A DNA stretch of 64,000 nucleotides from Neocallimastix sp. 'constans' (Eukaryota). The notes below the pieces were generated by a model. That model made no database searches and was not told where the DNA came from. It saw only the letters and a list, made by a program, of their open reading frames with translations. The stretch covers positions 1 through 64,000 of the forward strand of contig JBODTK010000104.1 of assembly GCA_050613775.1 (NCBI GenBank), written 5' to 3'. The translations under genes were made by a program, and so were the position numbers. Positions 734-38,767 of this stretch are shown here, piece by piece; positions within the stretch are counted from its first letter, which is position 1; every line of letters begins with the position of its first letter.

Positions 734-786
<53 letters not shown>

Positions 787-1085: not shown

Positions 1086-1091
1086 TTTATA

Positions 1092-2294: not shown

Positions 2295-2476
2295 ATACTT
2301 ACTAAAGAAAGCAAATAAAATTATTATTTTCAAAAATTACTAAGATATATTGTTTTAAAATTTGATTCGATATTAAATTACTTGTTAAATTATATTTTTA
2401 AAGTTGGACTTTCAAATTTATTCGTATTTAATAACCTCGTTAATTTACAATAAAAAAATTATTAACTAAAAACGAA

Positions 2477-3382: not shown

Positions 3383-3422
3383 ATGGGAGCAGAAGCACTC
3401 CCAATGACAAAACAATAGCTTC
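3370..3422 (+). promoter_or_regulatory. -1 ribosomal frameshift signal (UUUAAAC + H-type pseudoknot); copies at 11135, 24878, 31952
   Basis: In-frame T TTA AAC, a 7-nt spacer, stem TGGGAG/CTCCCA, and loop GAAGC pairing with downstream GCTTC. The -1 frame is open into pol. Confidence 0.85.
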
Positions 3423-7383: not shown

Positions 7384-7897
7384 GTCTTCGTCGGGGCATC
7401 TTGATAAGAATGTACTAAATAATGCATTCTTAATTAAATCTACGATTTATTTCTAATACATTATGTGTACATTATTATTTTTGTACTTTAATAAATTTTT
7501 AAATCCAAAGATCAAAAATTAAATCAAAAATTATATTAAACTTTATATTTTTATATTAAATCTTATATTAATAGTAATATTTTTATATATTTAAAACTTA
7601 TATTAGCAATATTAATAATAAATCTTATTTTTTTTATATTAATAATGAAAATTTATATTAATAATATTTTTATATATTGATAATTAAAAATTTATATATT
7701 ATATTTTAACTTTTTATTATAAAATTTTATATCGAAATGTTTTATTTTATATTGAAAAATATTTTATTTTATTAAAAACCTTTATATTAGAATAGTATTT
7801 TTATTTTTATTTGAATATTTTAACAGATTGTAATAAAAATTATAGCCAATTAAATAAATTCTTATTAGTAATATTTTAGATATTTTTAAATAAATAA

Positions 7898-7950
<53 letters not shown>

Positions 7951-10241: not shown

Positions 10242-11147
10242 ATGTCTACTAAAAGTACTTTAAGTTTTAAAGAATTAAAGAAAGAATTACGAGACATAGT
10301 GAAGCTTAGCAAGGACAATTTAGATATAAAGTCCTGGGCTACTGAATTAAAACTTTGGATCAAGATACAAGGTATCACAGATCCGGAAACAATATTTAAT
10401 GCTTGTTTACTTACCAGCTCTGGTGAAGTACAACGCGTTATTGAAGATTTGGGAGAAGATAGTGATGATGAAAGTGATGATTCATCAGATGAAGAAGAAG
10501 ATGATGAAGAAGAAAATGTTGATGATGATAAATTTCCTTCTCTTGAAAAAATTATTTCAAGTCTTGAAAATTTTTACGGTATTAAAGAAGACCAAAATTT
10601 ACTTCTTAAAGAACTTCGTGCAATGCGAATTAAAAGAAACGAAAAGATTAAAGACTTTAATGTAAGATATAGAACTTTGTACACTAAACTTGATAAAAAG
10701 AGAGGAAAGCGCATTGGTGTACTAGATTATATTGACTCTATTCAAAATAATTATGAAGCCTGGAAGAAATTATCCCTTAAAGATGATATAAGTATGGAGA
10801 AAGCTTTCAAAATTGCCGAGAAAGTAGATAGACTTTCTGTAAGGAACAATAATATTAATACCTATAATGTTAATAATTCCCAGCATAATCAAAATAATCA
10901 AAACAGTACTACTTCAAGACTTTATCCTAAAAGAAGAAACGAAACTTTCCAAACAAGTCAAACAAATAATAAACTGAAACCTCAAGATATTATAGAAGAA
11001 TCAACCCAGAAAATGAGAAATTTATCTGTTAAAACTTGCTTCTTCTGTAAGGAAGAAGGTCATTACTCATACTATTGCCCTCAATTAAATAAGATTATGG
11101 AAAAAAATAAAAAAGAAATATATTCCAAAAAGTCTTTAAACTTCTAA
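10242..11147 (+). CDS. gag: Gag, family A copy 2
   Basis: 301 aa, differs from A1 gag by one residue; CCHC knuckle. Confidence 0.93.
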   Translation: MSTKSTLSFKELKKELRDIVKLSKDNLDIKSWATELKLWIKIQGITDPETIFNACLLTSSGEVQRVIEDLGEDSDDESDDSSDEEEDDEEENVDDDKFPSLEKIISSLENFYGIKEDQNLLLKELRAMRIKRNEKIKDFNVRYRTLYTKLDKKRGKRIGVLDYIDSIQNNYEAWKKLSLKDDISMEKAFKIAEKVDRLSVRNNNINTYNVNNSQHNQNNQNSTTSRLYPKRRNETFQTSQTNNKLKPQDIIEESTQKMRNLSVKTCFFCKEEGHYSYYCPQLNKIMEKNKKEIYSKKSLNF

Positions 11148-14100: not shown

Positions 14101-15145
14101 TAAATTAATTTTAGAAGCTCATAATATTGGCCACGAAGGATATTACAAAACATATCAAAGACTTAAGAAAAACTTTTATTGGAATCATATGATTAAAGAT
14201 ATCAAAAGAATTGTTAGTAATTGTGAAAAATGCCAATTAAATCGTCCTCAACCATATCCAGAACCAACCGAAAACCATCCAACTAAAGTGGAGGGTCCCT
14301 TTGTGCATTTAGGATTAGATATTATAGGACCTTTGCCAAAAACAAGAAATAACAATCAATATATTATCGTTACAGTTGATTATTTCACCAAATGGGTTGA
14401 AGCTGAACCCACTGAGAATATAACTTCCTATGATGTAATTAAATTTTTAATAAACGTTTTTGCAAGACATGGTGTGCCTCAAGTTATTACTACTGATAAT
14501 GGAGTCCAATTCACCTCCGACATGACAAAAATCTTTCTTGACCTTTATGATGTTTATGTAAAATTCATAGCTACCTATTACCCTGAATCCAATGGTCTCA
14601 CTGAAAACCGAAATAAAGAAATTGGAAAATTGCTTCGTTTATTAGGAAGGAAAAATCAAGATTGGGATGAAGTTTTACCTTCTGCTTTATGGGCACTTCG
14701 AACTACCAAAAATACAGCTACTGGACATTCTAGTTTTGAATTAGTATATGGAAGAGAAGACCAACAGCCTTATGATATAGCCATAAGAACAATTGAAAAT
14801 GCAGGTAAATCATATGATGAAATTTTAATGGAAAAATTTGTTCGTCATTATCAATGGACTAGAGAAGCATGCGAAAATGTGAAGAATGCTAACAAGTATT
14901 GGGCAACAAGACGAGAAGAACAAATAAGTATGAAAAAAGGAAAAGAATTAAAGGCTGGTGATCTTGTTCTTGTTAGAAACTTTAGCCGCACTAAGCTAGA
15001 ACCATATTACAATGGACCATTTAAAATTTTAAAAATTCAATTCAACACGGCAACCCTAATCGATCAGAAGACTGGAAAGCAACTCGATAGGAATGTTCAC
15101 TTTAAAAATTTAGTAAAGTTTAACTCCGCTTACAGAGAAGCTTGA
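11135..15145 (+). CDS. pol: Pol, family A copy 2 (entered by -1 frameshift; first ATG 11330)
   Basis: Uninterrupted PR-RT-RH-IN reading frame. Confidence 0.95.
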   Translation, partial: FKLLNGSRSTPNDKTIASLNNLQNNTFTKNTPIDNNSFNKESEESDFSDTTESEDNIIINAIKRKMNDNNSEKEENNSKKVHKSLKDNPRPFATPALRKKKENELHNKPNKVYKNQILPSILTQPNINKEKQKEKELRNITRVRESKEENNNYSSKGKKKVESEDILVIDNEIEDIEMNKDNQQNKTNTLEKLISTKTKETNNENTQLVKRNIKMMNNKEPYNIMDDLNNLKSSITIGQLLNACPKIRSQLTQGLKLEKSKIIGTVDNVIARTLLVNNYDHSYISKSNEVAEEDLAMVDASVDGVLGKLLIDSCSNLSIVTKQYFDKLPGEYETVGKSRGRIQLATQDEEYSEGIIVQLPVKINNYEFNADFRIIEKEDSFYDMLINFKTQIDHCLFIHPTLNSLCKLLSESEYEEIAKINNQYYDEESIICTIRKVKETNNEKEIIKELTPMEFIESDEFLSTLNKDYKEQIIKILKEMIDIVATSTEELTPSKLSPHKIRLKANAKPVKLRSYRLTKLKSDILKEELTKLIKKGLIEPSCSEWSSPVVLILKHNGKWRLCIDYRKVNDMTEKDSYSVPYIDEIFDSLGGSKIFTTLDLFSGFHQILMDEESVEVTTFTTKFGNYQFKVMPFGLTGAPSTFQREMNKILFPFIGEFVYVFIDDVLIYSKSIEEHLIHIKQVLEVFKENKLKINIEKCHFLQTEVDVLGHKLTTKGLSPMESKITAIKKWEAPSSIHELRSFLGAIGYYRDFIPKYAQITSPLCKLLKKNTKYEWNKEQQESFELLKEKLINAPILKFPSFDKPFIIRTDASYNGIGGVLLQKEEETGKEHPIHFISRSLKKTEKNYGITDLEGTALFYCMTKFKSYIEGNPLPTTIYTDHKPLVGLFKNKEPLNARQTRWCLTASMLGINIKYESGKKNVLADALSRMKSKEERKILLTKITNGNNEELLSKVIKEFINEKFTVIDGEDYFIDNGNYRKLITDENERFKLILEAHNIGHEGYYKTYQRLKKNFYWNHMIKDIKRIVSNCEKCQLNRPQPYPEPTENHPTKVEGPFVHLGLDIIGPLPKTRNNNQYIIVTVDYFTKWVEAEPTENITSYDVIKFLINVFARHGVPQVITTDNGVQFTSDMTKIFLDLYDVYVKFIATYYPESNGLTENRNKEIGKLLRLLGRKNQDWDEVLPSALWALRTTKNTATGHSSFELVYGREDQQPYDIAIRTIENAGKSYDEILMEKFVRHYQWTREACENVKNANKYWATRREEQISMKKGKELKAGDLVLVRNFSRTKLEPYYNGPFKILKIQFNTATLIDQKTGKQLDRNVHFKNLVKFNSAYREA

Positions 15146-16972
15146 GTCTTCGTCGGGGCATCTTGATAAGAATGTACTAAATAATGCATTCTTAATTAAA
15201 TCTACGATTTATTTCTAATACATTATGTGTACATTATTATTTTTGTACTTTAATAAATTTTTAAATCCAAAGATCAAAAATTAAATCAAAAATTATATTA
15301 AACTTTATATTTTTATATTAAATCTTATATTAATAGTAATATTTTTATATATTTAAAACTTATATTAGCAATATTAATAATAAATCTTATTTTTTTTTAT
15401 ATTAATAATGAAAATTTATATTAATAATATTTTTATATATTGATAATTAAAAATTTATATATTATATTTTAACTTTTTATTATAAAATTTTATATCGAAA
15501 TGCTTTATTTTATATTGAAAAATATTTTATTTTATTAAAAACCTTTATATTAGAATAGTATTTTTATTTTTATTTGAATATTTTAACAGATTGTAATAAA
15601 AATTATAGCCAATTAAATAAATTCTTATTAGTAATATTTTAGATATTTTTAAATAAATAAATAAATAAAAAAAAAAAAAAAAAAAAAAATGTTTTATTAA
15701 TATTATAAATGTATTTTATTTATATTGTTATAATTAAATTTTATATAATTAATTATAAAAATCAATTTAAATTTAATAGTTTTTATAAAAAAAAAATAAA
15801 TAAAATGTAATTTAGTGGCAAGAACAACTTTTATGCCTTGAAAAAAGTATAAATAGTTGTAAATTTTGCTACTAATTTTTAAATATCATCAAATAAAATC
15901 AAATAAATTTATAAATAAAAATAATAAATAAATAAATAAAATTTGTGTTTCCTTACTTTATTTTTATTTAATTCTCTAAAACCTTAACACATGATAATAC
16001 AGAATGAACAAATAATACTAATTGTGCTAGAATAATATAAATTATTCTAACCTTATAGATTATTCTATTCTATATAATTGGAACTTTCCAATATTCTTCA
16101 AATATTACTAAATAGAAAATCTTAAGTTAATAAATCACTAATTAACTTATAATTCCTTTTTGAATTATCGATCCGATTCCATTATAATGTATTAAAAATC
16201 TTTAGCCAAGAATATTGTCCTTGCCCACTTAATATATTAATATTATATTTCTTTTGTATTATGTTATATTGAAAATAATCAAATCTATTTAATTAGTTAT
16301 TAAAATTTTCGTTATCAATTTAAATTTATTTTTAATTACTAAATTTAACTAAACCACAATAAAATATTCTGTATAATCTCTTTATTTTTATTTTATATAT
16401 ATTAGTATTAAACTATTATTAAATAATTAATAATTCAATAATATATAACTACTATTTATAACAATAATATTATTAACTAAAATAATAATTCAATTTCAAT
16501 TTAAATGTTTTATTTATAAAAATAATTAGTAATTAGTTTATTAAAAAAATAGTTAGGCTTTACAAATTTTAATTTGATAAAAAAATATAAATACATGTAA
16601 TTTTAGTGAAATAAAATATAATCAAAAAAACTTTCTTTTTATTAAATAAATAATTATATTATTATTTTTTTTTTATAAATTTAAATAAATAAATATTGAT
16701 TTTAAAACAAATTATTTTTTTTTATTGTAATTTTATTATTTGTGTTAATTATTATTATATTCCTAAAATTATATGAACCATACCATGAAAAATTGGTGGA
16801 GATATCGGGGAATATAATAATAAATTAATACATTGGGGATAAAATTATAATATTAATAAATAATTTTTCTAATAAAACAAATATTTTTTTTTAAAAAAAG
16901 AAAACAATTTTTATATTTTTAACTAATTATTATTAATTGTTAAAAATATTAATTAATGTAACGAATCTTAAA

Positions 16973-17587
16973 TGATACGATATTTTATTAAATACCGTAT
17001 ATGTTAGTTGGGCGTTTGTGCAAAAGGGAATTACTCCAAGAATATTATATTACAATAATTATATTTACTTTTTATTTATTTATCTTTTATTATTTTATTT
17101 ATTATATTTTATCATAAAAAAAATACATGTTTTATTATTATTCCTTAAAAAAAAAGAAAATATTTATTTATAAATTATTTTCATAATTATATTTTTTACT
17201 AATTTTATAAATTTTATTTATCGAAACACTAAAATTAATTAATAAATATAAATATCCATAACTTTTTACTTATAACTATTAATTCATCTTGTTTAACATT
17301 ATTTAAAAATTATTTTAATATTAACATCAATTTAATTAAACATTCAATCTCCGTTATAATTAATATAACTAATTTTACTATATTATCAACAATTCTTTTA
17401 ATATTTTTAATATTATTATTTAATTTAATATTTTAATAATTAATAATAATAAATTATCTTTAATAATATATTAATAATATATTTTAAGATTCATTATATA
17501 AAATTAATTTTTAATAAATATTTATATTAATAATTTTTCTAAATAATTTTTCTATTATTTTCTATTATTTTTACTGGACATGCATCA
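16973..17587. mobile_element. Solo LTR inserted in the 5' LTR of B
   Basis: 615 bp absent from the 3' LTR of B; ends TGATAC...GCATCA; 4-bp TSD TAAA. Confidence 0.85.
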
Positions 17588-17610
17588 TAAAAAATTAGAA
17601 ATTAGAATGC

Positions 17611-17663
17611 TGGCATAGTGGTTAGTCACTATGACCTCAGCCTGAACCACTAGGGTTCGACTC
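17611..17663 (+). promoter_or_regulatory. tRNA-type Pol III internal promoter inside the B LTR (second copy 23052-23104)
   Basis: A-box TGGCATAGTGG and B-box GGTTCGACTC at tRNA-like spacing, with a T4 run shortly downstream; no cloverleaf. Confidence 0.75.
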
Positions 17664-18182
17664 ACACCTTTACTAAAATTTTATATCATTTAAATTTTAA
17701 AGAATTTTTATACTTCATTTCTGTATTTGTTTCTGTATTTGTTTCTGTATAAATTTCTGAAAAAATTAACAAAAGACATTCTTAGAAATTAATAGAAACA
17801 AATCAGATAGAAATTCTATTTTAATTTATCTTTTATCATTATTTCTTTTAGATTCTTTTTAACCGAAAATAATCAATTTTTATGAAACTTTTTAATGATT
17901 TTATGGTTTTAAATTTTTATGGATTTAAATTTTGAAAAACTATAAATAGGAGTGAATTTCGCAGCCAAAAAAAAAAAATATTTTAAAAATTGTGTTTTTA
18001 TTAATTATTGAATTAATTAATAAGTAATTCGAAATATTACAATAATTAATCTTTATAATTAATATTTTTAAATTTCTTAATTAATAAAACTATATTTTAA
18101 AAAACCAAATTACTTATTAATCAAAAAGTGCTTACCTATTGTGTTACACTCTTTAAAACACGGATATTCCAATATTCGTTAC

Positions 18183-18193
18183 AATAAAAACAC
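18183..18193 (+). promoter_or_regulatory. Self-priming PBS of B
   Basis: AATAAAAACAC is complementary to GTGTTTTTATT at 17992-18002, about 50 nt downstream of TATAAATA (17941). There is no TGG tRNA-type PBS. Confidence 0.75.
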
Positions 18194-18230
18194 CACTAAA
18201 CTAAGCACAATACCTTTGCACTTTTACTCT

Positions 18231-18470
18231 TTTTGGAACCCCATTAAGGAATCCCATTTTCTACTACTATTTTTGGAACCCCGTTAAGGAATCCCATTTT
18301 CTACTACTATTTTCGGAACCCCGTTAAGGAATCCCATTTACTACTATTCTTTTTTGGAACCCCGTTAAGGAATCCCATTCTCTACTACTCTTTTTGGAAC
18401 CCCGTTAAGCAATCCCATTCTCTATTACTCTTTTTGGAACCCCGTTAAGGAATCCCATTTTCTACTATTT
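18231..18470 (+). repeat. Six ~40-bp tandem repeats in the B leader
   Basis: Unit TTTTGGAACCCCGTTAAGGAATCCCATTTTCTACTACT. Confidence 0.9.
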
Positions 18471-18702
18471 TTGAAACCACTTACCATTACTATAAATTTT
18501 TCTACCAAAATTCATTCATGAATTTATAAATTCAATCGGAACCCTTGAATTTTACTATATATTAAAATTATTAATATTTTCAATAATCCATATAACCATC
18601 CTTGAAATTAAAATTATTTATATTGAAATTAAATATTTACTTCTTCTAATAATTAATTATATTGTATATTTATTATTCAATCAAAATCAATAATTATAAT
18701 AA

Positions 18703-18746
<44 letters not shown>

Positions 18747-18803
18747 ATAATAATAATTTAGATATTTAATAGTTTTAATATAAATAACCAATTGAATAAT
18801 TAG

Positions 18804-22705
<3,902 letters not shown>

Positions 22706-23972
22706 ATATAAATCATTTAATCAAAAATAAATTTTATTTCATCAAAGTACTATTAATCATTCTAACTTATGATTATTTTAAAAAAAAAAAAAAATTATTT
22801 TATATTATTCAAAAACATTTATTCTAGATAGTTTTATTTTTATACTTTATTTTTAAAACTTAAAATTCATGTAATTTTTATTATCCAATGTATTAATTAA
22901 ATTATCACTCCTATAAGTAATTTAGTTATAGTTTATTATTATAAAAGTTAGAATTAGAAATAGTTTAGATTTAAAGCAAAAGATTCGTCTGGCATCCGAA
23001 TCCTAGAGGAGGACCATGTAACGAATCTTAAAAAATTAGAAATTAGAATGCTGGCATAGTGGTTAGTCACTATGACCTCAGCCTGAACCACTAGGGTTCG
23101 ACTCACACCTTTACTAAAATTTTATATCATTTAAATTTTAAAGAATTTTTATACTTCATTTCTGTATTTGTTTCTGTATTTGTTTCTGTATAAATTTCTG
23201 AAAAAATTAACAAAAGACATTCTTAGAAATTAATAGAAACAAATCAGATAGAAATTCTATTTTAATTTATCTTTTATCATTATTTCTTTTAGATTCTTTT
23301 TAACCGAAAATAATCAATTTTTATGAAACTTTTTAATGATTTTATGGTTTTAAATTTTTATGGATTTAAATTTTGAAAAACTATAAATAGGAGTGAATTT
23401 CGCAGCCAAAAAAAAAAAAATATTTTAAAAATTGTGTTTTTATTAATTATTGAATTAATTAATAAGTAATTCGAAATATTACAATAATTAATCTTTATAA
23501 TTAATATTTTTAAATTTCTTAATTAATAAAACTATATTTTAAAAAACCAAATTACTTATTAATCAAAAAGTGCTTACCTATTGTGTTACACTCTTTAAAA
23601 CACGGATATTCCAATATTCGTTACAATTAATATTAAATTAAACTAATATTCGTGCATAGATTTCCGGGTTAAGTTTATCCTACATAGTAATTGGGCTAGT
23701 AGGCTCTGGACTGCTATTTTTTATATTGAAAATAGTAACCGTGGCACACGCGTGGCATGACACCTTTCAAGAGGTAAGCTGCACGTCAGACAGTGTGTAC
23801 TATCAGATTGCACGATTATTATAATTTAATAAGTGATTAACAATAATAAATAATTAATAATTTTATTAGTTAAAAGATTTATTTTTTTTAATTTTTTTTA
23901 TTTTTACTTTTTTTTATAACAATTTATACATTACGAGGTTTAGCATTCTATAGATACAATAAATTTTATTTT

Positions 23973-24890
23973 ATGAGAACATCCAGTACTTCCAGTACTC
24001 CAACAGAGAGTACTCCAGAAAGTAAGCTTAGCTTCAGAGAATTAAAGAAAGAATTAAAAGATTTTGAAAAGCTTACTAAACAAAACCTTGACATCAACTC
24101 CTGGGCAAATGAGTTAAAGGCATGGATAAAATACCAACATATCAAGGATCCTGAAACTATTTTTACTGCTTGTATATTAACGGCTTCTGGAGAACCAAGA
24201 GAAATTATCCAAGAACTAGAAGATGGAAATGACCTTACTGAAGATGAAGATTCTGATTTCGATAGCGATAGTGAAGGAGAAGATGATGAAGAAAGTGAAT
24301 CTACTACCACCTACCCAAGCCTTGATGAAATCATAAATCATCTGAAGACTTTCTATGGACTTAAAGAAGATCAAACCAACTTGTTACGAGAATTGCGTTC
24401 CATGAAAATAAAGAAGAACGAGAAAGTTAAAGATTTTAATGTCCGTTATAGATCTTTGTACCATAAATTGGATAAAAAGAGAAGAAGAAAAATTAGTGTT
24501 TTAGATTATGCAGATTCCTTAACCAATAATCCTGACGCATGGAGAAAGGTTATGCTTAAAGACAATATTTCTATTACCAAAGCATTCGCTATAGCTGAAA
24601 AAGTTGATCGTTTATCTATTAAAAATAGTACTGAATATTATGATAAGACTCGTTACAATCTCCTTAACTCTAAAAGTAATTTTAATAAGAACATTTCAAA
24701 TGATTTTAACAAACCAAAAACCCACAAAAATGTATCTATAGAAAATCTCACTAACAAGATGAAAGAAATGAAAATTAGTACTTGCTGGTTTTGTAGCAAT
24801 GAAGGACATACCAAACGAAACTGTCCTAAATTAAATTCTATATTGGAAAATAACCGCAAGAAGTTTTATGAAAATTATTTAAACCACTAA
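23973..24890 (+). CDS. gag: Gag of element C
   Basis: 305 aa, aligns with A gag (LSFRELKKEL, DPETIF); CCHC CWFCSNEGHTKRNC. Confidence 0.92.
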   Translation: MRTSSTSSTPTESTPESKLSFRELKKELKDFEKLTKQNLDINSWANELKAWIKYQHIKDPETIFTACILTASGEPREIIQELEDGNDLTEDEDSDFDSDSEGEDDEESESTTTYPSLDEIINHLKTFYGLKEDQTNLLRELRSMKIKKNEKVKDFNVRYRSLYHKLDKKRRRKISVLDYADSLTNNPDAWRKVMLKDNISITKAFAIAEKVDRLSIKNSTEYYDKTRYNLLNSKSNFNKNISNDFNKPKTHKNVSIENLTNKMKEMKISTCWFCSNEGHTKRNCPKLNSILENNRKKFYENYLNH

Positions 24891-27800
24891 AAGGGAGTAG
24901 AAGCACTCCCATCGTCAAAAAAATTGCTTCAGTCTGCCATCGTCCCAAAACAGTTGACTTAAAAGAAGATGATGATTATGAAGAAATTGCTGATTTCCAA
25001 GAAGGTACTACTACGGATTATTACGAAGATTTTGATGATGAGTCGGATGGTTCCAAAGAATTGGATTACTTAGTAAACGTTATAAAGAGAAAGGCAAATC
25101 CTAAAGATGAAGAGACTAGTGACCAAAGAGGAAAGAGGGTTCACCGTAGTCTAAGAGATGATCCTAAGCCAATAGTTACTCCAGGTTTACGAAAACAAAA
25201 AGAAAATCAATTAAGGGGAACATCGCGACCAGTCAAAAAGCCAACAACTCATTTACATCCTTCGATTATAGCTCAACCCAGAATAGAGAAAGAAAAGAGG
25301 ATTGAGAAAGAGCTAAGAGATAAGGAAAGAGCTAGTACTAGTACTTCTGTGGAAAATAATAAAAATAGTATTGTTAATATTATTAATGAAGAAACTTCTC
25401 AGGAAGGAAATAATTCTAAACAAACTTTAAATAAATTAATTCAAGAAAAATCATCAGAAAAGTCAACTGAAATTATGCCAACTAGAATTCCAAAAAGAAT
25501 ACAAATGCAAACTGATTGTGATAGTCATGACGTGATCAAAGATTTAAACTCCAGTAATTGCAATATTACATTTGGACAATTATTGGACGTTGCTCCAAAG
25601 ATACGGTCTCAAGTATCACAAGGACTTAAATTAGAAAAGAATAATACTAAAATTTCAGGTGCAGTGGATAATATGTGTGCTACTACAATAATAACGAACA
25701 ATATAGATCATACATATAAAAGTAAACATCATGAACCACAAGAAGATGATATTGCTATGGTTGATGTAATAGTAGATGGAGTTCGTGGTAAGGCTTTAAT
25801 AGATTCATGTAGCAACTTAAGTATTATCACAAAGCAATTTTTAGATAAATTACCTTATCAGTATGAACCTATAGGAGTTAGTGCAGGACGAATACGTTTA
25901 GCAACGATGAATGATGATTACTCAGAAGATGTGTTAATCAAAGTTCCCGTAAATATTAATGAACTAGAACTACTTGTTACGTGTAGAATTATAGACAAGG
26001 AGGATCCATTCTATGATATATTAATCAACCTCAAAACTCAAATTGATAACCAGTTATTTATACATCCAATTAGATATAGTCTTTGTCGATTTAATGATCA
26101 AGGTTTAATTGAAGAAATTGCACCTATTAATAATGAATATGATGACGAAGAAAAATTATTATGTGTAATCAAAGCATTGAATCACCAAGAAGCTAAGCAA
26201 CAATTGAAAACGATTGAAGGATTACCACCCATAAAATATATATATGACACAGTTTTTCAAAGTACAATTAATTCAAATTATAGAGAAGCTATTACTAAAT
26301 TACTTGAAGAATATATTGATATAATTGCAACTTCTTCTGAAGAATTAACACCTTCAGATTTATCACCACACAAAATTATTCTTAAGGAAGGAGTTAAACC
26401 TATTAAACAAAAATTTTATCGACTTAGTAAATTAAAAACAGATATCTTAAAAGAAGAATTAACCAAACTCATATATAAACGATTAATTGAACCTTCATGT
26501 TCAGAATGGTCATCACCAGTAGTACTTGTGCCTAAAAAGAACGGTAAATGGCGCCTGTGTATTGACTATAGGAAAGTAAATGAAGCAACTAAGAAGGATT
26601 CTTATTCTTTACCAAATATTGAGGAAATTTTTGATAGCTTAGATGGAGCGAAAATCTTCTCAACATTAGATCTTTATTCCGGTTATCATCAAATATTAAT
26701 GGATGATGATAGTGTTGAAATCACTACCTTTACAACTAAGTTCGGAAACTACCAATTCAAGGTAATGCCCTTCGGTTTAACAGGTGCTCCAGCTACATTC
26801 CAAAGAGAAATGAACCGTATACTATTTCCCTTAATAGGAAAATGCGTCTATAACTTTATCGATGATATTTTAATCTACTCAAGAACTGAAGAAGAACACC
26901 TAGAACATCTTAAACAAGTCTTAGAAATATTCAAGGAACATAAGTTAAAAATCAATATCGAAAAGTGTTCTTTCATGCAAACTGAAGTAGAAGTACTTGG
27001 ACATAAAGTATCCTCAGAAGGTTTAAGTCCATTGGAAAACAAAGTTGAAGCTATTAAAGAATGGAAGGCTCCCTCTAACATTCATGAACTTCGATCATTT
27101 TTAGGAGCCATTGGATATTATAGAAATTTTATTAAGGACTTTGCAAAAGTTACTGCTCCTCTCTGCACTCTATTAAGAAAAGGTATTAAGTTTGAATGGA
27201 AAAAGGAACAAGAAGAAAGCTTTAAAATTCTTAAGGAAAGATTAATCAATGCTCCAATATTAAGATTTCCTAGATTCGATAGAGAATTTATTATAAGAAC
27301 AGATGCTTCCTATGATGGTATAGGCGGTGTGCTTTTACAAAAGGATGATGAAACTGGAAAGGAACATCCGGTTCATTATATTAGTAAAAGTTTATCTAAA
27401 TCGGAAAAGAATTATGGAATTACGGATCTAGAAGGTGCTGCTCTAATTTACTGTATTAATAAATTAAAATCTTATATTATGGGAAATCCTAAGCAAACTA
27501 TAGTATATACAGATCATAGACCATTAATCGGATTACTTAAAAGTAAGGAACCACAAAATTCTCGTCATACTAGATGGTGTTTGACTATCAGTATGTTAGG
27601 AATTGATTTACGATATGAAACTGGAAAGAATAATGTTGTCGCAGATGCTCTATCAAGAATGAAAAATGAAAAAGAAAAAGTTGTCTTAACAACACAAATT
27701 ATCAAGAAACAAGATGAAAACCTGCTTTCAAGAACCATTAAGGAATTTATTGAAGAAAAATTTACGACAATTGATGGTGTGGACTACTTTGTTGATGGCA

Positions 27801-28624
27801 ATAATTATAGAAAATTAGTTACAGATACAAAAGAAAAACTTCAATTAATTTTTCAAGCACACAGTATAGGACACGAAGGCTATTACAAGACATACCAACG
27901 TTTGAAAAAGAGCTACTATTGGAACAATATGGTTAATGACATTAAGCGAATTATAGGTAAATGTGAAAAATGTCAATTAAATAAATCTCAACCATACCCT
28001 GAACCAACGGAAGATAAACCAACTGAAGTGGAAGGACCATTTACACACTTAGGATTGGACATTATAGGACCTCTAAGTAAAACCAGAAATAATAATCAAT
28101 ATATAATCGTTGTGGTTGATTATTTTACTAAATGGGTTGAGGCAGAGCCCACTGAAAATGTTACTTCTCAGGATGTGATAAAATTTTTAATTAATGTATT
28201 TGCTCGACACGGTGTACCTCAAATTATCACTACTGATAATGGAACACAATTTACATCAGATATGACAAAAATCTTCCTTGATTTATATGATGTATATGTT
28301 AAATTTATCACTCCATATCATCCTGAAAGCAATGGTTTAGTTGAGAATCGTAATAAAGAAATTGGAAAATTATTACGATTACTAGGACAACAACACAAAG
28401 AATGGGATGAAATTTTACCATCTGCACTTTGGGCTTTAAGAACTACTAAAAACTCAATCACCAACCATTCAAGTTTTGAATTAGTTTATGGAAGGGAGGA
28501 CCAACAACCTTTTGACATTGCTGCCAGACCAACTAAGGGTATAAATAAGTCTTCTGACGAAATTCTACTGGAAAAATTTGTATCACACTACCAATGGGTA
28601 ATATTTATATATAAATCTATATAA
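24878..28624 (+). pseudogene. pol: Pol of element C, integrase C-terminus lost
   Basis: PR IDSCS, RT FIDD, RH and IN core are present. The frame runs into unrelated AT-rich sequence after about 28598. Confidence 0.88.
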
Positions 28625-28721: not shown

Positions 28722-28794
28722 TACCCAAACCCGGGTTCGAACCGGAGACCTTTTGCGTGTAAAGCAAACGTGATAACCACTACACTATTTGGAT
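28722..28794 (-). tRNA. tRNA-Val (anticodon UAC)
   Basis: ATCCAAA-TAGTGTAGTGGTTATCAC-G-TTTGC-TTTACAC-GCAAA-AGGTC-TCCGG-TTCGAAC-CCGGG-TTTGGGT-A: a full 73-nt cloverleaf followed by a T-run terminator. Confidence 0.95.
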
Positions 28795-29297
28795 ATTTCT
28801 TGCCATGAATTGATAAGAATGTACTAAATAATGCATTCTTAATTAAATCTACGATTTATTTCTAATACATTATGTGTACATTATTATTTTTGTACTTTAA
28901 TAAATTTTTAAATTCAAAGATTAAAAATTAGATCAAAAATTATATTAAACTTTATAATTTTTATATTAAATCTTATATTAATAGTAATATTTTTATATAT
29001 TTAAAACTTATATTAACAATATTAATAATAAATCTTATTTTTTTATTTTTATATTAATAATGAAAATTTGTATTAATAATATTTTTATATATTGATAATT
29101 AAAAATTTATATATTATATTTTAACTTTTATTATAAAATTTTATATCGAAATGTTTTATTTTATATTGAAAAATATTTTATTTTATTAAAAACCTTTATA
29201 TTAGAATAGTATTTTTATTTTTATTTGAATATTTTAACAGATTGTAATAAAAATTTTAGCCAATTAAATAAATTCTTATTAGTAATATTTTAGATAG

Positions 29298-29338
<41 letters not shown>

Positions 29339-31052
29339 TATTAATATTATAAATGTATTTTATTTATATTGTTATAATTAAATTTTATATAATTGATTAT
29401 AAAAATCAATTTAAATTTAATAGTTTTTATATATAAAAAGAAAAATAATAATAAAATGTAATTTAGTGGCAAGAACAACTTTTATGCCTTGAAAAAAAAA
29501 GTATAAATAGTTGTAAATTTTGCTACTAATTTTTAAATATCATCAAATAAAATAAAATAAAATAAAATAAAATAAAATAAATTTATAAATAAAAATAATA
29601 AATAAAAAAAATAAAATTTGTGTTTCTTACTTTATTTTTATTTAATTCTCTAAAACCTTAACATTTATATGGTGGAGATATCGGGGAATTAAATAGAAAT
29701 AATAGTAAATAACATAGATTTTTTTTAATTTTTTTTTATTTTATATTGATAAACAAGTAAGTCGTTAATCCTTTGATTAACCTATGGCGCTTGTTTGATA
29801 TATATATAAAAAAATTTTTTTTAAATAAGTAAAATTAAGATTCAAAAAAAAAAAAAAAAATTTTGTAAAATTATAACAAGGAGCGGATAGAGCTCATACA
29901 CAGTGTATTCTCAGATAGCAACAAATTAACTCTATTCATAGTAGGTTATTGAATAGTAGTTAATTTGGAGATTAATTGGAAAGTAGACGAAGGTATTTGG
30001 TTACCGACCCGGTAATAATAGTTCAGCCTTCAACGTTTCAACACACGAAGGTGCGGGTACTTTCCAAGCACTGGCGAATAAGGAGCTTACGTCACCGAAG
30101 GCGTAAGATTGTTTTTTTTATATATATTTTTTTTTTACTTTTCTTTGTGCTAGTTATAAGGCACTTTATTATATAAAGTATCAGACTTTGGCTAACTTCG
30201 CCATTTAAATTTTTTTTATTTTTTTTTATTACTGATACTTTATTTGTTTAATAATTCCTGTAAAAGAATCTTAATTTACTTGAAAATATTGTGTTTTTAG
30301 TTAATTTTTATTAGTTAATAAAAATATTATTGAATACTTTTAAAATTTTTTTTTATTCCGTACATAGATTATCGGATTAAGTTTATCCTACATAGTAATT
30401 GGGCTAGTAGGCTCTGAACTGCTATATTTTATATTGAATATAGTAATCGTGGCACACGCGTGGCATGACACCATTAGGTAAGCTGCACGTCAGACAGTGT
30501 GTACTATCAGATTGTACGACAATAAAGATTATTTTTTTGTATTTAATAATTATAATTAATTAATAATTTTATTAGCTATAACAATACAATATTTATCGTT
30601 TAAAAAGAAAAATTTTTGAAAGGTGAAAATAATAAATAAAACTTTGCTTCTAAATTTATTACTACAAATATACTAAATTACAAAATTCAAGTGGTCGATA
30701 AAGGTTTCGAGCTTGAAAAATATTCTATTGAGTTGTCGATAAAGATTTCGAACTTAAAATTATTCTATTGAGTTGTCGATAAAGATTTCGAACTTAAAAA
30801 TTATTCTTAATAAAGTAGTCGAAAAGAACCTCGTGCTTTATAATTTCTACTAAGTTGTCGATAAGGATTTCGAGCTTATATCTACTAAAGAAAGCAAATA
30901 AAATTATTATTTTCAAAAGTTACTAAAATATATTGTTTTAAAAATTGATTCGATATTAAATTACCTATTAAATTATATTTTTAAAGTTGTATTTCCAAAT
31001 TTATTCTTATTTAATCACCTCATTAATATACAACAAGAAATATTTAAACAAA

Positions 31053-31964
31053 ATGTCCAAGGAAACAACTTTGAGCTTTAAAGAATTGAAAAAAGAATTA
31101 AGAGATATTGTGAAACTTAGCAAGGACAATTTAGATATTAAGTCCTGGGCTACTGAATTAAAACTTTGGATCAAGATACAAGGTATTACAGATCCAGAAA
31201 CAATATTTAATGCTTGTTTACTTACCAGCTCTGGTGAAGTACAACGCGTTATTGAAGATTTGGGAGAAGATAGTGATGATGAAAGTGATGATTCATCAGA
31301 TGAAGAAGAAGATGATGATGAAGAAGAAAATGTTGATGATGATATTAAATTTCCTTCCCTTGAAAAAATTATTTCAAGTCTTGAAAATTTTTACGGTATT
31401 AAAGAAGACCAAAATTTACTTCTTAAAGAACTTCGTGCAATGCGAATTAAAAGAAACGAAAAGATTAAAGACTTTAATGTAAGATATAGAACTTTGTACA
31501 CTAAACTTGATAAAAAGAGAAGAAAGCGCATTGGTGTACTAGATTATATTGATTCTATTCAAAATAATTATGAAGCCTGGAAGAAATTATCCCTTAAAGA
31601 TGATATAAGTATGGATAAAGCTTTCAAAATTGCCGAGAAAGTAGATAGACTTTCTGTAAGGAACAATAATATTAATACCTATAATGTTAATAATTCCCAA
31701 CATAATCAAAATAATCAAAACAGTACTACTTCAAGACTTTATCCTAAAAGAAGAAACGAAACTTTCCAAACAAATCAAACAAATAATAAACCGAAACCTC
31801 AAGATATTATAGAAGAATCAACCCAGAAAATGAGAAATTTATCCGTTAAAACTTGCTTCTTCTGTAAGGAAGAAGGTCATTACTCATACTATTGCCCTCA
31901 ATTAAATAAGATTATGGAAAAAAATAAAAAAGAAATATATTCCAAAAAGTCTTTAAACTTCTAA
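31053..31964 (+). CDS. gag: Gag, family A copy 3
   Basis: ATG at 31053 (MSKETTLSFKEL) chosen by alignment with A1/A2; CCHC knuckle. Confidence 0.92.
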   Translation: MSKETTLSFKELKKELRDIVKLSKDNLDIKSWATELKLWIKIQGITDPETIFNACLLTSSGEVQRVIEDLGEDSDDESDDSSDEEEDDDEEENVDDDIKFPSLEKIISSLENFYGIKEDQNLLLKELRAMRIKRNEKIKDFNVRYRTLYTKLDKKRRKRIGVLDYIDSIQNNYEAWKKLSLKDDISMDKAFKIAEKVDRLSVRNNNINTYNVNNSQHNQNNQNSTTSRLYPKRRNETFQTNQTNNKPKPQDIIEESTQKMRNLSVKTCFFCKEEGHYSYYCPQLNKIMEKNKKEIYSKKSLNF

Positions 31965-34900
31965 ATGGGAGCAGAAGCACTCCCAATGACAAAACAATAG
32001 CTTCATTAAATAATTTACAAAATAATACTTTTACTAAGAATACTCCAATTGATAATAATTCCTTTAACGAAGAATCTGAAGAATCTGATTTTAGTGACAC
32101 AACTGAAAGTGAGGATGATATCATTATAAATGCTGTAAAAAGAAAAATGAATGATAATAACAGCGAAAAAGAAGAAAATAATTCCAAGAAAGTACATAAA
32201 AGTTTAAAAGATAATCCACGTCCTTTTGCAACTCCTGCTTTAAGAAAGAAGAAAGAAAATGAGCTGCATAATAAACCAAATAAAGTTTATAAAAATCAAA
32301 TACTTCCTTCAATTTTAACTCAACCAAATATTAACAAAGAAAAACAAAAAGAAAAGGAATTAAGAAATATGACAAGAGTAAGAGAAAGTAAAGAAGAAAA
32401 CAACAATTATTCATCAAAAGGAAAGGAAAAAGTTGAATCTGAAGATATACTTGTAATCGATAATGAAATAGAAGATCTAGAAATGAATAAAGATAATCAA
32501 CAAAATAAAACTAATACTTTGGAAAAATTAATTTCAACAAAAACTAAGGAAACTAATAATGGAAATACTCAATTAGTAAAAAGGAATATCAAAATGATGA
32601 ATAATAAAGAACCTTACAATATTATGGATGATTTAAATAATCTTAAATCCAGTATTACGATAGGTCAACTCTTGAATGCATGTCCTAAAATTCGTTCACA
32701 ATTAACTCAAGGTTTAAAGTTAGAAAAGTCTAAAATAATTGGAACTGTAGACAATGTAATAGCACGAACTTTATTAGTAAATAACTATGACCATAGCTAC
32801 ATAAGTAAAAGTAATGAAGTAGCCGAAGAAGACTTAGCAATGGTTGATGCAAGTGTTGACGGAGTACTAGGAAAACTTTTAATTGATTCTTGTAGTAACC
32901 TAAGCATCGTTACTAAGCAGTATTTTGATAAATTACCTGGTGAATATGAAACAGTTGGAAAAAGTCGTGGAAGAATCCAACTAGCAACACAAGATGAAGA
33001 ATACTCGGAAGGAATTATTGTTCGATTACCAGTAAAAATTAATAATTATGAATTTAATGCGGACTTTAGAATTATTGAGAAAGAAGACTCATTTTATGAT
33101 ATGTTAATAAACTTTAAAACTCAAATCGATCATTGTTTATTTATTCATCCAACCTTAAACAGTCTATGTAAACTTTTGTCAGAAAGTGAATACGAAGAAA
33201 TAGCTAAAATAAATAATCAATATTATGATGAAGAAAGTATAATCTGCACTATTAGAAAAGTTGAAGAAACGAATAATGAAAAGGAAATTATAAAGGAATT
33301 AACTCCAATGGAATTTATTGAGAGTGATGAATTTTTAAGTACCTTAAATAAAGATTATAAAGAACAAATTATTAAAATTCTCAAAGAAATGATTGACATA
33401 GTTGCCACTTCAACAGAAGAACTAACTCCTTCTAAACTTTCACCACATAAGATCCGTTTGAAAGCAAATGCAAAGCCAGTAAAATTAAGAAGTTATAGGT
33501 TAACTAAATTAAAATCAGATATCTTAAAAGAAGAACTTACAAAGCTTATTAAGAAAGGATTGATAGAACCATCCTGTTCAGAATGGTCATCTCCAGTAGT
33601 ACTCATTCTAAAACACAATGGAAAGTGGCGCTTGTGCATTGACTACCGAAAAGTCAATGATATGACAGAAAAAGATTCTTATTCAGTTCCATATATAGAT
33701 GAAATTTTTGATAGTCTCGGAGGAGCTAAAATATTTACAACTCTTGATTTATTTTCTGGTTTTCACCAAATCTTAATGGATGAAGAAAGCGTTGAAGTAA
33801 CCACTTTCACTACTAAGTTTGGAAATTATCAATTTAAGGTTATGCCTTTTGGACTTACTGGAGCTCCCTCAACCTTCCAAAGAGAAATGAATAAAATTTT
33901 ATTCCCTTTTATTGGTGAATTTGTTTATGTATTTATTGATGATGTTTTGATCTATTCAAAAAGTATCGAAGAACATTTAATTCATATTAAACAAGTATTA
34001 GAAGTATTTAAAGAAAACAAGTTAAAAATTAATATTGAAAAGTGCCATTTTCTTCAAACTGAAGTTGATGTATTAGGTCACAAACTTACTACTAAAGGAT
34101 TAAGTCCCATGGAAAGTAAGATAACAGCTATTAAGAAGTGGGAAGCCCCTTCATCACTTCATGAATTAAGATCATTTTTAGGAGCAGTGGGATATTATCG
34201 TGATTTTATTCCTAAATATGCTCAAATTACCTCACCTTTATGTAAATTATTGAAAAAGAATACCAAATATGAATGGAATAAAGAACAACAAGAAAGCTTT
34301 GAACTCCTAAAAGAAAAATTAATCAATGCACCTATTCTAAAATTTCCGTCATTTGACAAACCTTTTATCATTAGAACTGATGCTTCGTATAATGGAATTG
34401 GTGGAGTTCTTTTACAAAAAGAAGAAGAAACCGGTAAGGAGCATCCAATACACTTTATAAGTAGAAGTTTAAAGAAAGCTGAAAAGAATTATGGTATTAC
34501 CGATTTAGAAGGAACCGCTTTGTTTTACTGTATGACTAAATTTAAATCTTATATTGAAGGAAATCCATTACCTACAACTATTTACACAGATCATAAACCA
34601 TTAGTTGGTTTATTTAAGAATAAAGAACCTTTGAATGCAAGGCAAACAAGATGGTGTCTAACCGCTAGTATGCTCGGAATTAATATAAAATATGAATCAG
34701 GCAAAAAGAATGTGTTAGCTGATGCTCTTTCAAGAATGAAAAGTAAGGAAGAGAGAAAGATATTATTAACAAAAATTACTAATGGAAATAATGAAGAATT
34801 ATTATCTAAAGTTATAAAGGAATTTATTAATGAAAAGTTTACTGTTATTGATGGTGAAGATTATTTTATCGACAATGGAAATTATAGAAAATTAATAACG

Positions 34901-35962
34901 GACGAAAATGAAAGGTTTAAATTAATTTTAGAAGCTCATAATATTGGCCACGAAGGATATTACAAAACATATCAAAGACTTAAGAAAAACTTTTATTGGA
35001 ATCATATGATTAAAGATATCAAAAGAATTGTTAGTAATTGTGAAAAATGCCAGTTAAATCGTCCTCAACCATATCCAGAACCAACCGAAAACCATCCAAC
35101 TAAAGTGGAGGGTCCCTTTGTGCATTTAGGATTAGATATTATAGGACCGTTACCAAAAACAAGAAATAATAATCAATATATTATAGTAACTGTTGATTAC
35201 TTTACCAAATGGGTTGAAGCCGAACCCACTGAAAACATAACTTCCTCTGATATAATTAAATTTTTAATAAACGTTTTTGCAAGACATGGTGTGCCTCAAG
35301 TTATTACTACAGATAATGGAGTCCAATTCACTTCTGATATGACTAAAATCTTTCTTGATCTTTATGATGTTTATGTAAAATTCATAGCTACCTATCACCC
35401 TGAATCCAATGGTCTCACTGAAAACCGAAATAAAGAAATTGGAAAATTACTTCGTTTATTAGGAAGGAAAAATCAAGATTGGGATGAAGTTTTACCTTCT
35501 GCTTTATGGGCACTTCGAACTACTAAAAACACAGCTACCGGACATTCTAGTTTTGAATTAGTATATGGAAGAGAAGACCAACAGCCTTATGATATAGCCA
35601 TAAGAACAATTGAAAATGCAGGTAAATCGTATGATGAAATTTTAATGGAAAAATTTGTTCGTCATTATCAATGGACTAGAGAAGCATGCGAAAATGTGAA
35701 GAATGCTAACAAGTATTGGGCAACAAGACGAGAAGAACAAATAAGTATGAAAAAAGGAAAAGAATTAAAGGCTGGTGATCTTGTTCTTGTTAGAAACTTT
35801 AGCCGCACTAAGCTAGAACCATATTACAATGGACCATTTAAAATTTTAAAAATTCAATTCAACACGGCAACCTTAATCGATCAGAAAACTGGGAAACAAC
35901 TCGATAGGAATGTTCATTTTAAAAATTTAGTAAAGTTTAACTCCGCTTACAGAGAAGCTTGA
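31952..35962 (+). CDS. pol: Pol, family A copy 3 (via -1 frameshift; first ATG 32147)
   Basis: Uninterrupted PR-RT-RH-IN. Confidence 0.95.
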   Translation, partial: FKLLNGSRSTPNDKTIASLNNLQNNTFTKNTPIDNNSFNEESEESDFSDTTESEDDIIINAVKRKMNDNNSEKEENNSKKVHKSLKDNPRPFATPALRKKKENELHNKPNKVYKNQILPSILTQPNINKEKQKEKELRNMTRVRESKEENNNYSSKGKEKVESEDILVIDNEIEDLEMNKDNQQNKTNTLEKLISTKTKETNNGNTQLVKRNIKMMNNKEPYNIMDDLNNLKSSITIGQLLNACPKIRSQLTQGLKLEKSKIIGTVDNVIARTLLVNNYDHSYISKSNEVAEEDLAMVDASVDGVLGKLLIDSCSNLSIVTKQYFDKLPGEYETVGKSRGRIQLATQDEEYSEGIIVRLPVKINNYEFNADFRIIEKEDSFYDMLINFKTQIDHCLFIHPTLNSLCKLLSESEYEEIAKINNQYYDEESIICTIRKVEETNNEKEIIKELTPMEFIESDEFLSTLNKDYKEQIIKILKEMIDIVATSTEELTPSKLSPHKIRLKANAKPVKLRSYRLTKLKSDILKEELTKLIKKGLIEPSCSEWSSPVVLILKHNGKWRLCIDYRKVNDMTEKDSYSVPYIDEIFDSLGGAKIFTTLDLFSGFHQILMDEESVEVTTFTTKFGNYQFKVMPFGLTGAPSTFQREMNKILFPFIGEFVYVFIDDVLIYSKSIEEHLIHIKQVLEVFKENKLKINIEKCHFLQTEVDVLGHKLTTKGLSPMESKITAIKKWEAPSSLHELRSFLGAVGYYRDFIPKYAQITSPLCKLLKKNTKYEWNKEQQESFELLKEKLINAPILKFPSFDKPFIIRTDASYNGIGGVLLQKEEETGKEHPIHFISRSLKKAEKNYGITDLEGTALFYCMTKFKSYIEGNPLPTTIYTDHKPLVGLFKNKEPLNARQTRWCLTASMLGINIKYESGKKNVLADALSRMKSKEERKILLTKITNGNNEELLSKVIKEFINEKFTVIDGEDYFIDNGNYRKLITDENERFKLILEAHNIGHEGYYKTYQRLKKNFYWNHMIKDIKRIVSNCEKCQLNRPQPYPEPTENHPTKVEGPFVHLGLDIIGPLPKTRNNNQYIIVTVDYFTKWVEAEPTENITSSDIIKFLINVFARHGVPQVITTDNGVQFTSDMTKIFLDLYDVYVKFIATYHPESNGLTENRNKEIGKLLRLLGRKNQDWDEVLPSALWALRTTKNTATGHSSFELVYGREDQQPYDIAIRTIENAGKSYDEILMEKFVRHYQWTREACENVKNANKYWATRREEQISMKKGKELKAGDLVLVRNFSRTKLEPYYNGPFKILKIQFNTATLIDQKTGKQLDRNVHFKNLVKFNSAYREA

Positions 35963-36467
35963 GTCTTCGTCGGGGCATCTTGATAAGAATGTACTAAATA
36001 ATGCATTCTTAATTAAATCTACGATTTATTTCTAATACATTATGTGTACATTATTATTTTTGTACTTTAATAAATTTTTAAATTCAAAGATTAAAAATTA
36101 GATCAAAAATTATATTAAACTTTATAATTTTTATATTAAATCTTATATTAATAGTAATATTTTTATATATTTAAAACTTATATTAACAATATTAATAATA
36201 AATCTTATTTTTTTATTTTTATATTAATAATGAAAATTTGTATTAATAATATTTTTATATATTGATAATTAAAAATTTATATATTATATTTTAACTTTTA
36301 TTATAAAATTTTATATCGAAATGTTTTATTTTATATTGAAAAATATTTTATTTTATTAAAAACCTTTATATTAGAATAGTATTTTTATTTTTATTTGAAT
36401 ATTTTAACAGATTGTAATAAAAATTTTAGCCAATTAAATAAATTCTTATTAGTAATATTTTAGATAG

Positions 36468-36506
<39 letters not shown>

Positions 36507-36835
36507 TATTAATATTATAAATGTATTTTATTTATATTGTTATAATTAAATTTTATATAATTGATTATAAAAATCAATTTAAATTTAATAGTTTTTATAT
36601 ATAAAAAGAAAAATAATAATAAAATGTAATTTAGTGGCAAGAACAACTTTTATGCCTTGAAAAAAAAAGTATAAATAGTTGTAAATTTTGCTACTAATTT
36701 TTAAATATCATCAAATAAAATAAAATAAAATAAAATAAAATAAAATAAATTTATAAATAAAAATAATAAATAAAAAAAATAAAATTTGTGTTTCTTACTT
36801 TATTTTTATTTAATTCTCTAAAACCTTAACAGAAT

Positions 36836-37437
36836 TGATACGGTATTTACCCAAATACCTTAAATTATAATAATTTTAATATTTCTCCATATAAATATGT
36901 TTTAAATCTATTTTATTAATTAATTATTATCTTTATTAACTTTATCAATATTTCCTTTATTATTATATAAATATATATATTATTAATTATTAATATTTTG
37001 CTATAAAATAAATATTTTATTATATTCTTATTATATTTTTATTATACATTTGATAAATTTTATTTTATATTATAAATTTTTTTATTATTTTTATTATTAA
37101 TATTCATATCTAAAATTTTATTATTATTTTATTGTTACACAAAATTATTTTTAACTAATCAATGTATTACCAAAATTTATAAAATATTTTGTAATAATAT
37201 TATTTTAAATCTCTCTCTTTTCTTTTTTTTATGTAATGGAGGAATAAATAAATAAATGAACAAATAAATAAATGGATGAATAATATATAGTTAAATAAAT
37301 TTTTAAATAAATAAATTAATAAATAATCAATAAATAAATAAATAAATATTGTATAAGTTTTTCGTAATTTTTATACGTCCACTATCTATTTACCAATATA
37401 TTATTATACATCCATCAATTTCAAAAGTCCTGTACCA
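36836..37437. mobile_element. Solo LTR at the same target site as A3
   Basis: Ends TGATAC...GTACCA, flanked by GAAT on both sides (36832-36835, 37438-37441). Confidence 0.75.
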
Positions 37438-38767
37438 GAATGATAAATTTTAGAAATTATCTTAATTTTAATATAGAATTAAAAAGTGATTGTGTTAAAA
37501 AGTAAACAGGTTGAATTTAACGAGGAATCAGGTTGATATATCTATATAATATAACTATATAGATATAAGTAAATTACTAAAATAAAAGAGTTATAAAGTT
37601 AAATTTGTTAATTTAACACTTAATTAAAACTAATAATTGGTTTGATATGATAAAAATTTTTATTTATTAATAAAAATATATAGTTATATTATAATAGGTT
37701 AACTATAACCTTACAAAGGACAAAAAGATAAATTTGAATTTTCTTTTTATACTTTGTAGGTTTGAGAATATTGATAATAATAATATAAAGTTGATAATAA
37801 TAATATTTAGTATAAGAATATGTTTAATATAAATAAATTATATTTTTTAATCTAATATATTAGCTAATATATATAATATAATATTAAATTTAAATATTTA
37901 ATATAGTAATTAATAATTAATAATTAATTAAATCAATATAACATAAATTAATACATAAACATTAATTTATGAATCAAGGATGACATGACCAAATGATTCA
38001 TGTTAATAAATATTTTATTTATTAATAATATTTAAGTTTAATATGATATCATTAGAATCAGTAGGCCTAAGCTGGTCCTAAGATGATCAAATAACTTATA
38101 ATATTATAAAATAAATAAAATTTAAAGAATAATTAATGAATTATAAATTTTTATTAATTATTTTGTTTTTAATAATTTTAATTGAAATTAATTGAAATTG
38201 AAATTTAATTCAGTTGTAATTTCGACAACGCCCTTCCACAAAAATCGGATTCCAGACGATTTTGTGTAACGTTACATAAAGAAATTATTATATTTATAAA
38301 ATTGTATATTTTAAAAAATTTTTTTTTTTTTTTTTTTTTGAAGTAAAAAGGTCACATGAGTCCTTTAAAGAACACATTACAAGTGGCCATTTCATGGAAA
38401 TTTCGAAATTGTCAAAATTTACTGAAATTAAAATTTTGTTATAAAATTAAATATCGAGAAATATAATGGTGTGAATTTTATTAAAAATTTCGTTGAAAAA
38501 ATGTAAAATTGAAATTTTGAAATTGAAATTGAAATTTCATCTTAATTTTATGCATTAAATTGAAAATTTTTAAATATAATGAAAATTTATAATTTAATGA
38601 ATATAATAATGTAAAAATAAATAAAGTATTATTAAATTTCGATTTTTTAAAAATTTTTGAAATTTTGAAATGTAAAATTTTAAATTAACTAATTTAATTT
38701 TGAAATATTATTATTTAATATACTATTTATAGCTTAAGTATAATAATTTTTTTTTTTTTTTTTTTTT

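Follow-up and report, generated by a model that had tools for sequence, protein, structure and literature searches.

The 64,000-nt stretch of Neocallimastix sp. 'constans' contig JBODTK010000104.1 analyzed here (the window; GC content 23%) contains a single tRNA gene, tRNA-Val(UAC), upstream of which lie an intact long terminal repeat (LTR) retrotransposon, A3, and a dissimilar segment, S1. An earlier reading made from the sequence alone (the sequence-only reading) had proposed that A3 and S1 entered at the identical nucleotide, 16 bp 5′ of the tRNA gene, each bounded by the tetranucleotide GAAT. This arrangement was confirmed: GAAT is present in three copies that flank both elements (Table 1), and 16 nt separate the mature 5′ end of tRNA-Val from the A3 LTR start at 28811, with the GAAT duplication counted in. 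The proposed single-nucleotide precision did not hold up. Within the window the spacing is 15–16 nt, a precision of about ±1 nt rather than of strictly one nucleotide, and a single contig from another sample gives about 13 nt.

Table 1. Targets, duplications and elements of the window in order of position.
Feature	Position	Strand	Remarks
Target 1, box A/box B pair	164..215	-	Rfam does not call it tRNA; homology to the LTR head of chromovirus B
A1 + A2, further A copies in tandem	238..15989	+	A1 LTR start 22 nt upstream of target 1 box A
Element C	15992..28624	+	same clade and primer site as A; starts 2 nt after A2; split by B; lacks its 3′ end
Chromovirus B	16957..23625	+	duplication ATTAA (5 bp); box A/box B in both LTRs
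S2, second solo LTR, TGATACG..CA	16973..17587	+	inside B's 5′ LTR; duplication TAAA (4 bp); 23 nt upstream of box A
Target 2, pair of box A and box B within the 5′ LTR of B	17611..17663	+	
Same pair in B's 3′ LTR	23052..23104	+	unoccupied; built-in empty-site control
tRNA-Val(UAC), target 3	28722..28794	-	Rfam 61.5 bits; ARAGORN 28721-28795; box A start 28787
Target duplication GAAT, copy 1, 4 bp	28807..28810	+	
A3 5′ LTR, TGATA..CA, 853 nt	28811..29663	+	
A3 primer-binding site	29670..29689	+	6 nt past LTR; complement ends CCA
A3 gag, 303 aa	31053..31964	+	CCHC knuckle; Gag-like by ESM Atlas
A3 pol frame	31928..35962	+	protease-like region, RT, RNase H, integrase; no chromodomain
Predicted -1 frameshift signal	31952..31985	+	TTTAAAC, then 6-bp hairpin; layout also in C
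A3 3′ LTR	35981..36831	+	
GAAT copy 2	36832..36835	+	
S1, TG..CA, 602 nt	36836..37437	+	best read as solo LTR of related family, same clade; homology at ends only
GAAT copy 3	37438..37441	+	

A3 has the LTRs, primer site, gag and order of reverse transcriptase (RT), RNase H (RH) and integrase (IN) of a Ty3/gypsy (Metaviridae) element. Its LTRs differ by no substitution and by two gap columns, and its gag and pol frames are both open; a Pfam search with the gag product gave no hit. In A3 and in the related element C, pol lies in the −1 frame, preceded by TTTAAAC with a hairpin that is weak (z of −1.0 and −1.7). By eye, the loop after the 6-bp stem could pair with a downstream GCTTC (31952–32005 in A3, 24879–24935 in C), a possible frameshift pseudoknot.

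The clade to which A3 belongs includes members on contigs outside the window (numbered with L, below), and its LTRs start with TGATA or TGTTA. The gap between LTR and primer site ranges from 2 to 9 nt and is unusually long, 5–9 nt, in most members (29664–29669 in A3; also L007, L009 and L011). About 4–5 bases outside the purine tract precede the 3′ LTR (35976–35980), which together with the long spacers implies long cDNA end extensions. The sequence-only reading had described a tRNA-Ala-primed lineage. A, C and L002 do share a single type of primer site, putatively that of tRNA-Ala; L007 and L011 carry other sites, and the description does not extend to the whole clade. Its placement of the host among early-diverging fungi was borne out by the relatives of A3 pol, whose protein cluster contains a Neocallimastix lanati protein and whose named close relatives are Orpinomyces gene models. 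Sequencing runs containing the stretch include animal faecal metagenomes, and the host is likely an anaerobic fungus of the gut.

S1 had been taken for a solo LTR, and this stood for its ends and not for its interior. The last 10 nt of S1 are those of the L007 LTR (chance ∼8e-6 over the 9 LTRs compared), L007 being a clade member with 56% identity in RT-IN, and the first 15 nt match those of S2, a second solo LTR in the window, and of the L011 LTR at 12 of 15 positions. The interior had no alignable homologue in the window (z ≤4.8 against shuffles; 11.7 for the related pair of chromoviruses D and E), and mutual homology among the interiors of the S1, S2, A and C LTRs was not significant, at the level of AT-rich background. 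CA followed by GAAT occurs within 36836–38400 only at 37436; the hexamer is found 20 times per 64 kb. Because its ends match clade LTR ends, S1 is best read, from sequence, as the solo LTR of a sister family within the A3 clade. The parent of S1 would have inserted first and then collapsed to a solo LTR, after which A3 may have cleaved these same 4 bp on the side facing the gene, displacing S1 outward. If the promoter sets the distance, the most recent insertion should be the one closest to the gene, and the near-identical LTRs of A3 fit this order.

The window was scanned for box A plus box B, the internal promoter elements in genes that RNA polymerase III (Pol III) transcribes, with consensus patterns for the two boxes. 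Each of four stringencies returned the same four pairs, with box A at 215 and 28787 on the minus strand and at 17611 and 23052 on the plus strand. At three of the four, an LTR end of the A3 clade lies 22–23 nt upstream of box A, which places it within the 13–18 nt upstream of a mature tRNA 5′ end or its equivalent: the A1 LTR start is 22 nt from the box A at 215, the end of S2 is 23 nt from that at 17611, and the A3 start is 23 nt from that at 28787. The targeting of Pol III positions proposed from tRNA-Val thus extends to two further sites in the window. The pair at 17611 lies in the 5′ LTR of a second element, chromovirus B, and the fourth pair is its unoccupied counterpart in B's 3′ LTR. 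Once S2 and one TAAA are removed, the two B LTRs are identical but for one gap, which makes the insertion of S2 very recent and its duplication 4 bp long; the 4-bp duplication present at tRNA-Val is thus seen independently against an empty twin. A 3-bp duplication (GAA, with LTRs starting TTG) was rejected, since no T stands before the LTRs of S2, C and L009, and the S2 duplication is cleanly 4 bp. Target 1, at the start of the window, is itself related to the head of the B LTR (score 123; reached by 0 of 500 shuffles, maximum 71). With Rfam at E values up to 10, neither the LTR-borne pairs nor the pair at the window start were called tRNA, and ARAGORN at relaxed settings gave only noise.

The duplicated or junction 4-mers differ across the three sites; a target-sequence consensus was rejected on this ground, and it is likely that position, rather than sequence, is selected. 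The elements face both ways with respect to the promoter, S2 being directed towards it and A1 and A3 away from it. Were placement random over the 33,042 bases outside the clade, the two extra sites would have a probability of ∼6e-8 for a 2-nt window or 6e-6 for a 20-nt window, a crude estimate with the window set post hoc. Of the six clade insertions in the window, three lie directly at the distance of 22–23 nt from box A, S1 is stacked on the same 4 bp behind A3, and A2 and C lie behind A1. B and D, both chromoviruses, are flanked by 5-bp duplications and are located away from this distance.

We consider it likely, with good confidence, that A3 and its relatives are a chromodomain-less Ty3/gypsy clade, likely of anaerobic gut fungi, that at three box A/box B pairs occupies positions 22–23 nt in front of box A, with 4-bp duplications shown at two of them, probably through tethering to Pol III factors. 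A clade that inserts loosely, or that prefers LTR ends or open chromatin, so that the tRNA-Val stack reflects landing beside an existing LTR end, would accommodate the adjacency of A2 and C, only 2 nt apart, the dense nesting of elements in the region, and the 3′ LTR of L007, which is directly followed by another TG-starting repeat. It leaves unexplained why three unlinked insertions, differing in 4-mer and opposed in orientation, all keep 22–23 nt from box A, and we regard it as very unlikely. Direct recognition of box A DNA or nearby sequence by the integrase, without a host factor, would also account for the constant spacing to a consensus box A in three of three targets. Box B, however, is present in all three as well, and neither a domain search nor the predicted model revealed an extra DNA-binding domain in the A3 integrase. 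In the cited work, every dissected case at this position uses TFIIIB or TFIIIC (PMC5911963, PMC6101501). We regard direct recognition as highly improbable.

By analogy with Ty3 and DGLT-A, the integration complex would be tethered by TFIIIB or TFIIIC bound at the promoter, and any DNA that assembles Pol III factors could serve as a target; the cassette of box A and box B carried by B's LTRs would be one such DNA. B-type LTRs, judged from their sequence, would then act as mobile landing pads and help to build the nested cluster. The carriage of targets by another transposon is an added feature of this proposal and rests on two sites in one window.

Several observations weigh against targeting as a general property of the clade. 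The evidence for it comes from one 64-kb window and metagenome contigs, and within the window A2 and C have no verifiable duplication. A metagenome scan for the A LTR start returned one locus, an internal junction. Among loose ends preceding the A LTR start in sequencing runs X8 (4 contigs, agreement 0.59) and X11 (2 contigs, 0.63), no box A was found in the 30-letter consensus; this is expected with mixed loci or with a promoter on the other side, yet lends no support. Summed read depth, which is not copy number, is far higher for the LTR than for the tRNA, and many copies may therefore lie elsewhere. Lastly, L007, the sole locus with host-side flank, has no tRNA or box pair in the 329 nt past its 3′ LTR, this being one flank only.

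A single 170-nt contig of run X11 covers 28728–28836 with 11 other letters and 5 gaps, and joins a variant tRNA-Val-like sequence to an A LTR start. Its 106 letters span 109 places; were the gaps located in the spacer, this would be about 13 nt long. In runs X1 and X7, the loose-end consensus is the element's own purine tract. Scans of viral contigs gave no match. Contaminant contigs of 5 prokaryote bins yielded members of the clade with hardly any host flank, and 14 loci from prokaryote bins contained no tRNA. The junction pattern matched 51 times in bins, against 30 for the reversed control, with none resembling an LTR junction by inspection; the only match clearly at a listed tRNA (G001:C61) was discarded, that tRNA belonging to the bin's prokaryotic host. 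The LTR-borne box pattern was found in 0 of 5 bins, and in the loci scanned there was no box pair near an LTR. The loci L002–L013 are fungal retrotransposon contigs that have been wrongly assigned to several genome bins of bacteria and archaea; public records label at least two of their proteins as prokaryotic.

The remaining elements of the window form a dense array. The A1/A2 tandem has no matching duplication at its far end. The 3′ LTR of A1 breaks off at about 603 nt, where the A2 5′ LTR follows without a gap (7401–8004), by deletion, recombination or assembly error, and A1's pol has frame breaks near 3560–3800. Chromovirus B has an open 1287-aa reading frame from which the first half of RT is missing in frame, about 105 aa from the RT start. 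The protein collection also contains the 1287-aa form, which may come from the same organism; its closest relatives of full length have ∼1390 aa and 79–80% identity. A TGG primer site was not found after B's LTR, where a short spacer is followed by a pyrimidine-rich stretch. Downstream of S1, within 37493–51556, chromovirus D (minus strand) has identical LTRs and the duplication GATTG, and is inserted across the first bases of the LTR of chromovirus E, which began about 65 nt upstream of tRNA-Val before these insertions. A decayed gag of a D/E-related element lies at 53251–53938, and the remainder of 51557–64000 is largely AT-rich simple repeat.

The sequence-only reading had also suggested a lineage distinct from yeast Ty3 and had called for an RT/IN phylogeny including Ty3 and DGLT-A. 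We built a FastTree tree of 37 RT-RH-IN sequences over 804 columns, after dropping 4 of 52 sequences for short matches and thinning 11 clade members; Ty3, DGLT-A, Tj1 and Ylt1 lie outside this tree, and Ty3 was compared by scores only. The 13 clade members form one group with a long stem and support 1.0, separate from B, from D and from the chromoviruses of plants and algae, and A3 does not group with the chromoviruses in this tree without Ty3 itself. Against Ty3 integrase, that of A3 scored 84 bits and that of chromovirus D 174, in agreement with the suggested distance; A3 scored higher against foamy virus (113 bits) than against Ty3. RT-RH scores against Ty3 were 283 for A3 and 307 for D. 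Outside five clade members, the best 150 representatives were ∼31–42% identical, and 8 of 10 looked up carried no name.

After the GPF motif, A3 has 40 residues and B, D and E have 106–117; the motif lies near the end in 39 of 109 relatives (median 38 aa, range 18–199, some proteins being truncated). No chromodomain, canonical or vestigial, follows the SH3 barrel of A3. The predicted integrase model consists of a long helix (298–340), a beta barrel and then the end of the protein (pLDDT 77, pTM 0.50), and its best fold matches were foamy virus integrase, then that of Ty3. By sequence comparison, the clade is thus monophyletic, chromodomain-less and further from Ty3 than the neighbouring untargeted chromoviruses. 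The likeliest contact, judging from the model, would be the SH3-like C-terminal barrel on its long helical linker, the counterpart of which in Ty3 touches TBP. In Ty3 a vestigial chromodomain also touches Brf1 (bioRxiv 2021.07.27.453949); A3, which lacks this domain, could retain the SH3–TBP contact and not the Brf1 contact.

The A3 lineage lacks the Ty3-clade features that we tested (5-bp duplication, initiator methionine (iMet) primer, +1 frameshift and chromodomain) though it works like Ty3 and DGLT-A, and its likely homing to Pol III promoters probably follows a route separate from that of yeast Ty3. Targeting could instead have been inherited from an ancestor in common with Ty3, DGLT-A or Ylt1. 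Spacing is the same as in Ty3 and DGLT-A, the integrase tail of DGLT-A is likewise short (32 aa; PMC5006619), and a review table places Ylt1 near tRNA starts (PMC5911963). The lower Ty3 score of the A3 integrase relative to untargeted chromovirus D argues against such inheritance, as do the modest identities beyond the clade and the long, fully supported stem outside the chromoviruses, the group to which Ty3 is assigned (PMC2864245). Shared ancestry seems to us unlikely, without being far-fetched. An independent origin in a still-active gut-fungal lineage, with targets that are themselves mobile because the Pol III promoters in B's LTRs spread landing pads, is a tentative proposal to which we give somewhat less than even weight.

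Pol III start-site targeting by LTR elements has been described for ascomycete yeasts and dictyostelids. A search joining gut-fungus names, retrotransposons and tRNA found no description, with Repbase, supplements and most subscription papers outside its reach. If the proposal is true, the landing sites of one transposon would be dictated by another, and nested clusters would grow at a distance from genes. Few genetic tools exist for gut fungi, and a safe-harbour integrase could be useful for them. An intact young element of an early-diverging fungus, lacking Ty3's chromodomain, would directly test whether precision arises via another host contact. Since Ty3 passes over sites bound by TFIIIC alone (PMC5911963), LTR-borne box pairs could naturally separate TFIIIB from TFIIIC tethering.

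Among known systems, Helenus/Cassandra (TRIMp3) resembles B in that its LTR has kept the two boxes, A and B, but no functional tRNA fold (PMC10886601), and the parts of that paper covered do not describe it as a target for other elements. Helenus is non-coding and at most ∼1.3 kb, whereas B is a 6-kb coding chromovirus derivative. Tj1 of Schizosaccharomyces japonicus, like A3, integrates a short way upstream of Pol III genes, and its copies are grouped at tRNA genes (PMC4600332). It differs in being self-primed and Tf1-related, and in inserting 5–11 bp from the mature end. No named Ylt1-like protein was among the matches listed for clade proteins. Ylt1 of Yarrowia lipolytica makes a 4-bp duplication and uses a tRNA-Ala primer. 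Like A3, it is a non-chromoviral fungal gypsy element with long LTRs (PMC2864245, PMC8307478), and non-chromoviral gypsy elements with 4-bp duplications are described from a choanoflagellate (PMC6875170).

Ty3 of Saccharomyces cerevisiae (also Tyl3/Tyl6 of Yarrowia) shares with A3 the Ty3/gypsy domain order, a long helical linker before an SH3-type barrel, and the distance from LTR to tRNA, 15–17 bp from the mature 5′ end (PMC5014426). Ty3 has a 5-bp duplication, an iMet primer and pol in the +1 frame; in contrast, A3 has a 4-bp duplication, a non-iMet site, pol in the −1 frame and no vestigial chromodomain. DGLT-A of Dictyostelium discoideum is like A3 in its 13–18 bp window, insertion in either orientation, chromodomain-less short tail and TGG primer site (PMC6101501, PMC5006619, PMC5911963), and it binds Tfc4 via RNase H and the integrase N-terminus (PMC6101501). 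It differs in having a single gag-pol reading frame, compared with two in A3, and a primer site 2 nt rather than 6 nt from the LTR. DGLT-A is unusable for a direct test of targeting because no active copy exists, whereas the A3 clade offers intact, young copies.

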